From contig OX597838.1 in assembly GCA_951406725.2 (NCBI GenBank), positions 5,642,001 through 5,706,000 on the forward strand: a DNA stretch of 64,000 nt, read 5' to 3'. Numbering within the stretch: the first letter of the stretch is position 1; every line of letters begins with the position of its first letter. Positions 21,727 to 63,685 of the stretch are shown here, one piece after another. Position numbers and translations under genes: made by a program. Source of the DNA: Octopus vulgaris (taxonomy: Eukaryota). Below the pieces are notes generated by a model. That model searched no databases, was not told where the DNA came from, and saw only the letters and a list, made by a program, of their open reading frames with translations.

Positions 21727-21882
21727 AGGCAGCGGCAGGCAAAATGTTTAGCGGCATTTCGTCCGTCCATATGTTCTGAGTTAAGATTCTGTCGATTTCA
21801 ACTTTGACTAACATCCGTTCGGGGTATATACAATTAAGTACCAGTGAAAGACTAGGGTGAGTGTAATCGACTAGTCCCGTTC
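21727..21882 (+). mobile_element. Degenerate SINE A
   Basis: tttagcggcatttcgtcc...gttctgagtt...cggggt...aattaagtaccagt...gtgtaatcgact. Confidence 0.7.
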
Positions 21883-22693: not shown

Positions 22694-22700
22694 TCCTTAA

Positions 22701-22864
22701 GGCGGGGAGCTGGCAGGAAACCACAGCGGTCGACATTTTTTAGCTGCGTTTCGTCTGTCGCGACGTAATGATTTCAAATTCTGCCGAGGTCGACTTTACT
22801 ATTCCTCCTTTCGGGGTCGATAAATCAAGTACCAGTTGAGTACAGGCCTTGAGCTTATAGTCGA
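22701..22864 (+). mobile_element. Degenerate SINE A
   Basis: ggcggggagctggcag...ttcaaattctgccgaggtcgacttt...cctttcggggtcgataaatcaagtaccagtt. Confidence 0.8.
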
Positions 22865-27212: not shown

Positions 27213-27443
27213 GGGAGCGAGCTGGCAGAACCGTTAGCACGCCGGACGAAATGCGTTGCCGTATTTCGTATGTCGTTACGTTCCGAGTTCAAATCCCGCC
27301 GAGGTCGACTTTGCCTTTCATCCTTCCGGGGTTGATAAATTAAGTACCAGTTACGCACTGGGGTCGATGTAATCGACTTAATCCCTTTGTCTGTCCTTGT
27401 TTGTCCCCTCTGTGTTTAGCCCCTTGTGGGTAGTAAAGAAATA
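27213..27443 (+). mobile_element. SINE family A, full-length monomer (tRNA-derived)
   Basis: A-box-like tggcagaaccg, B-box gagttcaaatccc, central ccgaggtcgactttgcctttcatcc...gataaattaagtaccag, tail ccccttgtgggtagtaaagaaata. Sits in (TA)n. Confidence 0.92.
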
Positions 27444-27499
27444 TAGATATATATATATATATATATACATATACATGTAAATAATAACATGTATATAAT

Positions 27500-52915: not shown

Positions 52916-53212
52916 GTATATAGAGAGAGATAGATAGATTGATAGACAGAAAGATAGATAGATATTATGCATAAATATATGTTTGTGTATCTGTGATGGA
53001 AGGTGTGGTGATTGTGTAGTGTAAGCAGTCATTGATGAAAGAACGGAAAATGACCCCAAATCGTCTCATATTTGACATCTGAAAAAGGAATATTCCTCTC
53101 TTCACTTGTCACCAAGTCTCTGCCTCATGTTTTACACAATTAGATCAAGGAAAAGCGTATTTTTCCAGAATACAAATCGAAGTAATATATAATATAATAG
53201 AACCATGTCGAA

Positions 53213-53402
53213 GGTGGCGAGCTGACAGAAACTTTATCACGCCAGGCGAAATGCTTAGCAGTATTTCGTCTGCCGTTACGTTCTGAGTTAAAATTCCGCC
53301 GAGATCGACTTTGCCTTTCATCCTTTCGGGGTCGATAAATTAAGTACCAGTTACGCACTGGGGTCGATATAATCCACTTAATCCGTATGTCTGTCCTTGT
53401 TT
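53213..53402 (+). mobile_element. SINE family A, 3'-truncated monomer
   Basis: ggtggcgagctgacagaaac...gtatttcgtctgccgttacgttctgag...gtcgataaattaagtaccagttacgcactggggtcg. Confidence 0.9.
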
Positions 53403-57760: not shown

Positions 57761-58377
57761 AGATATACCAGCGTTCAACAGGTAGTTCTTTTCAGGTGTG
57801 TAAACTGGATAAGCATGGAATGAACTGATTTGCTAAAAACTCACAGCAAGGTGCCTAGTCAACCTACGAATATATGATAGTCATCGCACACCAAAACTAA
57901 GATACTGTTTCCTTTCACACATTTAATCAATATTTAGCACATGAAATAAGAGTAAAATATTTGATATTATAATTAAGAAAGGTCAGATTTGGTGAGTAAT
58001 GAATGCTTTCTGAAAGAAGCAAGTTTGCATGTTAAAAATAACGAGATCATTATGTCCTTTTCCATTCTCTGACGGCGTTTTCTACTACATCAGATATATG
58101 TTTGTTATTTCTACCGTATCCAGCTGCTATTTTAAGCCAAGTTTAACAAACATTAATAAGAATAATCTTAGAAGATATATCTGTCGTAGGCTTTACCAAG
58201 GTGTCTTCTAGCCAAGCATTATAATGTACCCTTTCTTTGATACAGAGAATAATTACTATTTCTATTAATTTAATAATCGATGTTCACCTATTCTCTCTTC
58301 CAGGCCGTTTTTTGCGATTGTAGGGTGCCTCGTTATAGTTGGTTGCCAGAAGTAGTGACAGATATATTTGGGACAAA

Positions 58378-58723
58378 GGCGGCGAGCTGGCAGAAACGTT
58401 AGCGTGCCAGACGAAATGCTCAGCGGCATTTCGTCTGCCGCTACGTTCTGAGTTCAAATTCCGCCGAGGTCGACTTTGTCTTTCATCCTTTGGGGGTCGA
58501 TAAATAAAGCACCGGTTACGCACTGGGGTCGATGTAATCGACTTAATCCGTCTGTCTATCCTTGTTTGTCCCATCTGTGTTGAGCCCCTTGTGGGTAGTA
58601 AAGAAATAGAAATGGGTATTGTGTCTGCCTTTCGGTTCTGAGTTCAAATTCTGCCGAGGTCGGCTTTGTCTTTCATCCTTTCGGGGTCGATAAATTAAGC
58701 ACCAGTTGCGTCCTGGGGTCGAT
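58378..58723 (+). mobile_element. SINE family A dimer (full monomer plus a head-less second body)
   Basis: Monomer 58378-58608, junction aagaaata-gaaatg-ggtattgtgtctgcc, second body ~58615-58723. Confidence 0.9.
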
Positions 58724-58734
58724 TAAAAAAAAAT

Positions 58735-58985
58735 TCGGGCCTTCTGTCTACAGTAGAAAAGATACGTCTTAGACAGATATGAGAACCTACAGAGGCTAGC
58801 GTGGATCTGTCGGACCGATCCCTTAACGTTCCAGCCCCCAGAAAGCTAGTAATTCTGAAGAGCTGATATTTTGGCAAGGAGGACTGTAGCCTATGTTTTG
58901 GACGGTTGTGTGATGTGAGAAATGTTTGGCAGCTATCTTTAGCAAATCGGGCATCCTCTCCACATAGAATAACCCTCACACGGTA
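58735..58985 (+). mobile_element. Possible decayed RTE-type LINE 3' coding end
   Basis: CEKCLAAIFSKSGILS resembles the terminal CxxC...SxIGLxSH motif. Stops present. Confidence 0.3.
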
Positions 58986-61410: not shown

Positions 61411-61827
61411 ACTGTATGTATATGCAAGTATGTATGTTTTATTGTGTCTTCACCCTTCATAGGTGTCTAAGAAAATCATGATATGAGTTATACATCAGTA
61501 AACCGATGGTTGGCAGATTTACAGTGTCGGCAGGACGAAATGTTAGAATATGTGTTGCAGACGTAATTAAATAGGAAATAGCATTATCGCATAATCAGCA
61601 ATACTTGATTGATTAGCTCTATTACACTGCATTTGGACATATCGAATCTAATCTGACATCGTTGATTTACTTCTCTGTGAACGACAGTCAGACTTGTCAA
61701 CGTCAGGCCGACGTTAGATAACGTGTTTTTCCGTAGACTAACCTCTCAATTATGTGACATTATAGCTTTTCTCATCAGAGACCGTAAAGTTGAATCGTTA
61801 AGATATTTAGCGAAACATTAATATATT

Positions 61828-63537
61828 AAGGCGGCGAGTTGGCAGAAACGTTAGCACGCCGGGCGAAATGCGTAGCCGTATTTCGTCTGCCGTTACGTTC
61901 TGAGTTCAAATTCCGCCGGTAGGTCGACTTTGCCTTTCATCCTTCCGGGGTCGTTAAATTAAGTACCAGTTACGCACTGGGGTCGATGTAATCGACTTAA
62001 TCCGTTTGTCTGTCCTTGTTTGTACCATCTGTGTTTAGCCCCTTGTGGGTAGTAAAGAAATAGGTATTTCGTCTGCCGTTACGTTCTGAGTTCAAATTCC
62101 GCCGAGGTCGACTTTGCCTTTCATCCTTCAAGGGGTCGTTAAATTAAGTACCAGTTACGCACTGGGGTCAATGTAATCGACTTAATCCGTTTGTCTGTCC
62201 TTGTTTGTACCATCTGTGTTTAGCCCCTTGTGGGTAGTAAAGAAATAGGTATTTCGTCTGCCGTTACGTTCTGAGTTCAAATTCCGCCGAGGTCGACTTT
62301 GCCTTTCATCCTTCCGGGGTCGTTAAATTAAGTACCAGTTACGCACTGAGGTCGATGTAATCGACTTAATCCGTTTGTCTGTCCTTGTTTGTACCATCTG
62401 TGTTTAGCCCCTTGTGGATAGTAAAGAAATAGGTATTTCGTCTGCCGTTACGTTCTGAGTTCAAATTCCGCCGAGGTCGACTTTGCCTTCACATCCTTCC
62501 GGGGTCGTTGAATTAAGTACCAGTTACGCACTGTGGTCGATATAATCGACTTAAATTCGTTTGTCTGTCCTTGTTTGTACCATCTGTGTTTAGCCCCTTG
62601 TGGGTAGTAAAGAAATAGGTATTTCGTCTGCCGTTACGTTCTGAGTCCAAATTCCGCCGAGGTCGACTTTGCCTTTCATCCTTCCGGGGTCGTTAAATTA
62701 AGTACCAGTTACGCACTGGGGTCAATGTAATCGACTTAATCCGTTTGTCTGTCCTTGTTTGTACCATCTGTGTTTAGCCCCTTGTGGATAGTAAAGAAAT
62801 AGGTATTTCGTCTGCCGTTACGTTCTGAGTTCAAATTCCGCCGAGGTCGACTTTGCCTTTCATCCTTCCGGGGTCGTTAAATTAAGTACCAGTTACGCAC
62901 TGGGGTCGATGTAATCGACTTAATCCGTTTGTCTGTCCTTGTTTGTACCATCTGTGTTTAGCCCCTTGTGGATAGTAAAGAAATAGGTATTTCGTCTGCC
63001 GTTACGTTCTGAGTTCAAATTCCGCCGAGGTCGACTTTGCCTTTCATCCTTCCGGGGTCGTTAAATTAAGTACCAGTTACGCACTGGGGTCAATGTAATC
63101 GACTTAATCCGTTTGTCTGTCCTTGTTTGTACCATCTGTGTTTAGCCCCTTGTGGGTAGTAAAGAAATAGGTATTTCGTCTGCCGTTACGTTCTGAGTTC
63201 AATTTCCGCCGAGGTCGACTTTGCCTTTCATCCTTCCGGGGTCGTTAAATTAAGTACCAGTTACGCACTGGGGTCAATGTAATCGACTTAATCCGTTTGT
63301 CTGTCCTTGTTTGTACCATCTGTGTTTAGCCCCTTGTGGGTAGTAAAGAAATAGGTATTTCGTCTGCCGTTACGTTCTGAGTTCAAATTCCGCCGAGGTC
63401 GACTTTGCCTTTCATCCTTCCGGGGTCGTTAAATTAAGTACCAGTTACGCACTGGGGTCGATGTAATCGACTTAATCCGTTTGTCTGTCCTTGTTTGTAC
63501 CATCTGTGTTTAGCCCCTTGTGGGTAGTAAAGAAATA
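61828..63537 (+). mobile_element. SINE family A concatemer: one tRNA-like head plus nine ~184-bp tandem bodies, 14-bp TSD
   Basis: Units start at 61877, 62063, 62248, 62432, 62618, 62802, 62986, 63170 and 63354. ATATTTAGCGAAAC occurs at 61803-61816 and 63537-63550. Confidence 0.95.
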
Positions 63538-63685
63538 TATTTAGCGAAACCACTGAGGGGGGATCATCCTGCGTGCTGGTTCAACCAGCTAGTAAGAGAA
63601 ATGAAGTGCCTCTCAAATTGCTGTCCTAAAAAGTGGTTTTCTATTCTGGTACAAAAGCAGCAATTTTGAAGGGTGGTGGGGGGTC

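Follow-up and report, generated by a model that had tools for sequence, protein, structure and literature searches.

The array at positions 61803–63550 of the window (the whole stretch of 64,000 nucleotides that was analysed) is a one-headed chain of nine SINE units, ordinary within its family except for its length, and the junction that repeats between its units (J1) is demonstrably created by the nested insertion of one SINE copy at position 50 of another. Self-targeted insertion, read-through into chains, and later DNA-level expansion of the nine-unit array are, taken as a whole, the explanation that we regard as reasonably probable. The observations behind it are nested insertions with target-site duplications (TSDs), a fixed junction, polar mixed chains having TSDs of their own, an array free of four-T runs, a tail shared with a LINE, and variants copied between units of the array.

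All parts of the array are on the plus strand. It opens with the 14-bp left TSD, ATATTTAGCGAAAC (61803–61816), which was found in the window only once more, at 63537, where it forms the right TSD (63537–63550); the repeat cannot be extended further. The right TSD begins with ATATTT, in the same register as at the 3′ ends of the candidate partner LINE described below. Eleven A/T bases (61817–61827), untemplated or captured, separate the left TSD from the single SINE head (61828–61877). In most TSD-bearing copies of the family, the 5′ gap is shorter than these 11 bases. Unit 1 (61878–62062) consists of a core with a B-box-like motif (61904–61913) and of tail A, which is like a LINE 3′ end. Units 2–8 (62063–63353) each open with a linker G and GTATTTCG, the junction J1, which corresponds to element position 50, and start at 62063, 62248, 62432, 62618, 62802, 62986, and 63170. 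Unit 9 and its linker G occupy 63354–63537, and the right TSD begins on its final tail base. The repeated part was reported by TRF as 61878–63537, with a period of 184, 9.0 copies, and 97% matches, and the unit spacings were 186, 185, 184, 186, 184, 184, 184, and 184. The left flank is single-copy in the 2.8-Gb host genome.

These results reproduce most of what the initial annotation had described from the letters of the sequence. One head, nine units of 184–186 bp, and one flanking TSD were recovered by TRF, unit spacing, and repeat search; the 14-bp TSD is perfect at both ends and confined to 61803 and 63537 in the window; and the eight junctions are identical, as had been stated. The 1-nt ambiguity that had been assigned to the breakpoint did not hold, the linker G being no ambiguous base, as the array's own head has C there.

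The head carries an A box (61840–61850) that matches the Pol III pattern, and the B-box-like motif at 61904–61913 is one base off the strict pattern. This B-box-like motif is present in every unit, and the unit start falls between it and the A box. Since no tRNA was detected by ARAGORN (in the window) or by Rfam (in the head and first units), the label 'tRNA-derived' is owed to the boxes only. T runs longer than three are absent inside the array, and a Pol III transcript begun at the head would likely meet its earliest stop at the first TTTT downstream (63637–63640). With no Pol III stop in the array, read-through would give a one-headed multimer RNA. The head (61828–61877) also provides the 5′ arm and the UAGC loop of a long hairpin, the 3′ arm of which begins the repeated unit, and the junction sits just 3′ of this loop. 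The fold of the head and unit 1 was not more stable than those of shuffled sequences (z −0.47).

Other members of the family in the window, also on the plus strand, were a monomer inside a TA microsatellite (27213–27445), a 3′-truncated copy (53211–53402), and a heterodimer (58376–58775), in which a head and a tail-A unit are followed by a junction with an extra GAAAT repeat and then by a core with the older tail B. Two old relatives of the SINE head and core, with 74–76% identity, are located at 21738–21872 and 22699–22837.

Genome-wide, the exact 24-nt junction J1 gave 26,764 matches against 0 for the control, the head-to-body pattern 51,806 matches, and the tail-end pattern 75,354 matches. 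An unbiased sample of 100 stretches of 10 kb (1.0 Mb) was picked regardless of the element. Tail-A ends continued into another unit in 48 of 97 cases in this sample. The entry point was exactly position 50 in 33 of them, no more than 6 nt away from it in 4, and at or near position 17 (J2) in 10; the one remaining tail ran into a new head. As nearly all continuations fall at two fixed points, the junctions are fixed and not scattered at random across the genome; such scatter is the outcome that the initial annotation had named as speaking against its reading. By extrapolation, the genome holds about 1e5 J1-type junctions. The 53 head-bearing tail-A elements in the same 1 Mb comprised 31 monomers, 15 dimers, 4 trimers, 1 five-mer, and 2 six-mers. 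Family members with TSDs are dispersed and of high copy number, and TSDs were detected around 22 of 56 monomers, compared with 0% in the control. The same joint with G was the best-supported back-joint listed in the contig runs of organisms D and A, and was present in organism E.

Several further arrangements were observed in the genome. An array of the 184-bp unit at C9 (L304, ~732,400–736,000) has at least 20 junctions and is of satellite scale. A six-unit array (L181, minus strand, 216–1400) includes both junction types, at positions 50 and 17, and its units share a private tail variant. The J2 junction at element position 17 (e.g., L072, L122, L168) is tied to CAA-type tails and shows AGAAA microhomology.

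Chains were characterised in loci pooled from the unbiased sample and from pattern-picked loci, mostly from the start of contig C1, so that the proportions given for them are biased toward intact junctions. A TSD was called at a score of 10 or more, and mismatched flanks were used as controls. TSDs surrounding the whole chain were found for 12 of 26 A-ending dimers and 10 of 26 B-ending dimers, and for 11 of 18 and 9 of 17 longer chains, with 0–2% in the controls for these classes; in roughly half of all elements, no TSD was detectable. The many unlinked, one-headed multimers with the same junction and their own TSDs, which the initial annotation had suggested looking for, are thus present. 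TSDs at terminal tails frequently open with the first bases of J1 itself. The first two units of an array differed by 8.6% on average (n = 41), compared with 10.8% between arrays. As the paired units are nearly as divergent as unrelated copies, late DNA duplication is not the maker of the typical dimer; typical multimers were already multimers at insertion, and a plain post-insertional origin, the alternative that the initial annotation had set against its own, does not fit multimers generally.

The composition of the chains is polar. Among 97 multimers that start with a head, the last tail was the older tail B in 43 and tail A in 44, the other 10 being unclassified; tail B followed by J1 gave 3 pattern matches only. 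The 26 A-A dimers shared the tail subtype in 11 cases and differed in 15, of which nine were TAG-then-CAA, the reversed order being absent (0). Internal units keep the full tail to GAAATA. The linker base was G in 152 of 158 junctions regardless of the head base, including 41 of 43 in which the head has C, as in the array. Upstream of most chains there is no host head. Heads of A..B chains were A-like, lying 6.4% from the A majority, compared with 15.6% in the case of B monomers (p = 2e-7), and only 2 of 23 A-B dimers had the same 13 bases at the core start in both units; one-headed chains are accordingly not seamless insertions into a resident copy, which was rejected as their main source on these two grounds (heads not host-like and few identical core starts). 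Terminal B units were more diverse than their A partners (9.3% versus 6.8%). No linkage between first-unit and last-unit variants was detected in 43 A..B chains (p = 0.46, one head site in the test being at the wrong column), and p fell below 0.02 in 1 of 72 site pairs. A single master heterodimer as the common ancestor was not supported, no linkage having been seen in this test, and the result means that many source loci, or template switching between RNAs, are needed.

A minority of chains is homogeneous. Unit 1 and unit 2 matched at all six subfamily sites in 21 of 64 pairs, compared with 8% of random pairs. A rare variant was shared in 17 of 41 first pairs versus 9.5% of random pairs, and at least two rare variants in 8 of 41 versus 0.3%. 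Median pairwise divergence was 9.1% in dimers (28), 10.0% in trimers (21), 6.4% in tetramers (9), and 5.1% in chains of five or more units (12).

The origin of J1 is visible in nested insertions. TSDs opening with the first bases of the junction pointed to GGTATTT as the target, and the pattern of positions 50–61 followed by a new head gave 111 matches against 15 at a control position deeper in the core, both lists including a few tandem repeats of one locus. The inner tail was of type A in 27 of 30 such loci (28 distinct places), and all 27 continued in J1-type sequence, compared with a baseline of 38 of 97. A private host variant was duplicated on both sides as part of a 13–17-bp TSD at L228, L229, L230, L237, L239, L253, and L256; at several other nested loci, the two sides disagree. 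Twelve of the 30 nested insertions had landed on an existing junction. Insertion at position 50 also explains the linker G and the young-before-old polarity of the chains. Visible nested insertions, with 111 exact matches, are greatly outnumbered by junctions, with 26,764, and 2 of 38 J1-type junctions were visibly nested in the unbiased 1 Mb, namely L079 and L173, both with older hosts and both likewise with private variants duplicated in a 13–17-bp TSD. At J2 (position 17), no nested excess was seen (12 matches).

The hosts at L079 (6980–7420, minus strand) and L173 (5890–6520, minus strand) represent an even older family, whose tail is of a third type, and the targeted site is therefore common to at least three related SINE families. 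At another place (C10, 17996023–17996506, also L234 and L235), a 64-bp head segment (positions 1–64) is repeated in tandem in up to eight copies, and the repeats likely expanded between the paired heads that a nested insertion creates.

A candidate for the partner LINE was found via matches to tail A that lacked the core, a repeat with 2,883 pattern matches genome-wide. Its 3′ end and tail A have 39 of 50 aligned columns in common, and TATCTA follows at 20 of 28 intact ends. Its upstream frames contain RVT_1 and zf-RVT (Pfam), and the closest solved structure in the PDB ranking was L1 ORF2p (E ~1e-27), with R2 at ~1e-15. Judged by sequence, the SINE partner is likely a LINE of the L1/Tx1 type. 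At L301 (4155–7498; also L102, L300, and L302), an abundant LINE with RVT_1 and zf-RVT has its 3′ end before (TATC)n and about 48 nt in common with tail A; a second zf-RVT fragment upstream in L301 suggests a tandem insertion.

The bases that follow a terminal tail depend on the tail type. TAG-type tails, which go with J1, were followed by GG in 22 of 38 cases compared with 4 of 25 for CAA-type tails (p = 0.0015), and CAA-type tails, which go with J2, were followed by A in 13 of 25 cases compared with 1 of 38 for the TAG type. That the target start tracks the junction of each tail type suggests RNA-guided priming, and annealing of RNA beyond the tail fits because the two tail types differ in their following bases; these differences could also reflect different epochs or enzymes. 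Endonuclease preference probably contributes, since the TATCT context of the LINE resembles both the TATTT found at position 50 and the ATATTT with which the array TSD starts, and an enzyme that prefers TATYT may account for some of the targeting with no RNA annealing involved.

In the mechanism that we propose, a new SINE copy inserts at position 50 (GGTATTT) of a copy of the same or an older family, which puts the new tail directly ahead of the host's remaining body. The Pol III promoter of the inserted copy would read through the host remainder, and the resulting one-headed multimer RNA would be pasted elsewhere, with its own TSD, by the L1/Tx1-type LINE, reverse transcription probably beginning at any recognised tail. 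The GGUAUUU past the tail may anneal to the nicked target and so bias insertions to GGTATTT, including position 50 of other copies, and the junction would thereby renew itself. The array in the window would then have been lengthened and homogenised by DNA-level duplication. Unlinked variants do not demonstrate the descent of chains from particular nested masters. More tentatively, and at a confidence that stops short of an even balance, the read-through 3′ extension, acquired when a copy once landed at position 50 of a relative, might be regarded as a heritable guide that primes preferentially at matching sites, the same position of other copies among them, regenerates one junction, re-mobilises dead older SINE bodies, and seeds thousands of 184-bp proto-satellites.

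The evidence for DNA-level lengthening of the array comes from the locus itself. The nine units differ by 1.8% only, and both variants by which they had been said to depart from the monomer at 27213 were found in all nine. The variant pair is private to the locus, all of its 8 matches genome-wide being there; ten other genome matches had the ACCA variant, all without the T variant, and no source copy was found in the assembly. One of the 12 CpGs carries a transition, in four of nine units, and a non-CpG variant is present in three of nine, with all four combinations occurring. Private changes per unit, by a hand tally, were 1, 2, 1, 6, 1, 0, 0, 1, and 0, which is uneven (p = 0.008), unit 4 having six. 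Since re-reading of one RNA cannot propagate variants shared by a subset of units, and unequal exchange or conversion can, the nine-unit array was likely expanded at the DNA level. The sameness of the nine units, which the initial annotation had derived from one template, is better explained in this way. The founder at the locus probably had at least two units, because a junction is required and the last tail ends at the TSD.

The locus was also compared between organisms. One contig of organism D covers the flank and goes on into the head, so that the insertion is shared with that organism. A contig of organism E follows the left flank to 61814 and continues for 185 bases with no SINE match, which suggests an empty site; the empty allele that the initial annotation had proposed to look for is indicated to that extent. 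For organisms A, B, and C, the unique flank was covered by short stray matches only.

Other ways of making the chains were weighed against nested insertion and read-through. Chains could be built at insertion by template switching between different RNAs, the enzyme starting on one RNA (often of the tail B or CAA type), copying to position 50, and moving to an RNA with a GGUAUUU(CG) 3′ extension. The missing linkage across the junction in A..B chains would agree with this, as would the roughly geometric fall in unit numbers (31, 15, 4, 1 five-mer, and 2 six-mers in 1 Mb), the position of the junction atop a long hairpin that could stall the enzyme, and post-junction units with a B-type start and A-type rest, which look recombinant. 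It needs RNAs that already extend past the tail into junction sequence, however, and nested insertion supplies these; the visible nested insertions already give the same joint, and the strict polarity is what one would expect when a young copy lands in an older host, so that we consider template switching unlikely. The initial annotation had preferred repeated passes over one linear, pseudo-circularised RNA, giving a homogeneous multimer at integration. Complementarity between the tail end GAAATA and TATTTC at the unit start is compatible with such passes, and so are the private variants carried by all nine units and the excess of like pairs (21 of 64 matching at all six subfamily sites, 8 of 41 sharing at least two rare variants). 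Most chains are mixed and polar, though, the linker G occurs in 152 of 158 junctions and is absent from the array's own head, no source copy with the variant set is in the assembly, and subset-shared variants cannot come from one unchanged RNA. The idea is thus abandoned for most chains, leaving room for same-template slippage in the homogeneous minority, and as an explanation of the multimers it appears quite improbable.

Rolling-circle reverse transcription of a 184-nt circular RNA, retrozyme-like and with the head added by a final switch, would account for the fixed unit length and junction, the place of the junction just 3′ of the hairpin loop, and the existence of arrays of 20 or more units. 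It is contradicted by the mixed chains and terminal B units, by the rising homogeneity of longer arrays, as DNA-level turnover predicts, and by the nested insertions, which account for the junction; moreover, searches of the unit turned up neither a hammerhead core nor any match to a simple HDV-like descriptor or to an Rfam ribozyme. CTGANGA is absent on either strand, in accordance with the initial annotation, and the array is not a retrozyme; we hold a circular template to be very improbable. A similarly small chance is given to purely DNA-level origins of all chains, by post-insertional duplication of a monomer or by seamless insertion of units, even though the nine-unit array itself shows DNA-level copying and squamate and clam SINE arrays have been ascribed in print to unequal recombination. 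The units of a dimer are on average 8.6% divergent and unrelated copies 10.8%, mixed A..B chains own TSDs, heads are not host-like, with identical first 13 core bases in 2 of 23 A-B dimers, and the same junction recurs genome-wide and in the runs of three other organisms; for the family, this explanation is largely refuted. That the nine-fold count is an assembly artefact is scarcely credible: the array's units carry distinct, patterned variants, its flank is single-copy, and comparable and longer arrays exist elsewhere. Self-targeted insertion with read-through, followed by local expansion, is retained as the preferred reading.

If this reading is right, it describes a route from dispersed SINEs to tandem satellites that needs no chance recombination as its start and that leads from self-targeted insertion through read-through and mobile chains to local expansion. 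A non-autonomous element would set its own target bias through inherited downstream sequence. Old SINE bodies would be re-amplified as passengers, and the estimates of age and subfamily that repeat annotation gives would be distorted. Since one genome holds tens of thousands of junctions, sequence alone can serve to test each step.

The family may resemble, and may even be one of, the octopus OR1/OR2/OK SINEs or the elements with MetaSINE/Sauria-type central domains, which have a tRNA-type head, a conserved centre, and exchangeable tails. The mentions of OR1/OR2/OK SINEs in the available portions of two papers describe no multimer structure (PMC4824008, PMC4758252), and words beginning with 'multimer' or 'satellite' are absent from the main text of an octopus repeat annotation (PMC13282606). 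A self-targeting, read-through multimer family at such a scale was not found in the literature searched, which lay outside subscription journals, Repbase/Dfam entries, and supplements; one-headed SINE arrays are already in print, and the self-targeting loop was not found there.

Animal non-LTR retrozymes, according to the sections drawn on here, occur as dispersed dimers to long multimers of 150–450-bp units, with TSDs when present and a hammerhead in each unit (PMC7229834, bioRxiv 10.64898/2026.07.22.740005). The tandem 150–450-bp units with a TSD are likewise found here, whereas the type I hammerhead is lacking and a Pol III-type head, a LINE-shared tail, and mixed chains are present. In target-primed reverse transcription by R1Bm, SART1Bm, the I factor, R2Ol, and RTE-related elements, as far as the sections used report it, sequence located at the 3′ end of the RNA or beyond it base-pairs with the nicked target and thereby determines where reverse transcription begins (PMC7265360, PMC6007223). 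Those elements are LINEs that have either fixed host targets or tails of microsatellite sequence; in the present family, by contrast, the annealing sequence would be SINE body sequence gained by self-insertion. SINEU of crocodilians shows, in the part of the paper referred to, a target preference for a Mariner element, is likely mobilised by the Tx1 clade, and forms tandem insertions that sandwich a TSD (PMC4494074). A preference for a site in another repeat is common to SINEU/Tx1-Mar and to the present family (111 matches against 15 for the control). Here, however, the element targets position 50 of its own sequence, and what results moves on in the form of one-headed chains, while SINEU tandems are, in that account, sequential full insertions.

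The squamate SINE-derived satellites (sSat) repeat part of a SINE in tandem, the terminal unit being longer, on a scale of 150–180 bp, and have been attributed to duplication and concerted evolution; the main text of that paper nowhere uses the terms TSD, template switch, or reverse transcript (PMC10702118). Homogeneity rises with unit number here as well, whereas the short chains of the present family are mobile and bear TSDs, satellite-like behaviour being confined to long arrays. A structural parallel is provided by the TSD1-(SINE)n-TSD1 arrays of Scapharca broughtonii, which have one complete tRNA head, head-truncated repeats, one TSD, and 4–15 units, with some mixing families; they make up 3% of SINEs, their internal units are also 3′-truncated, and unequal recombination has been suggested for them (PMC11481361). 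One full head, head-truncated repeats, and one flanking TSD are shared with the array described here. The present family differs from the clam arrays in that about half of its tails continue into another unit, the tails are full, the junction is fixed, and a nested insertion was seen making it.
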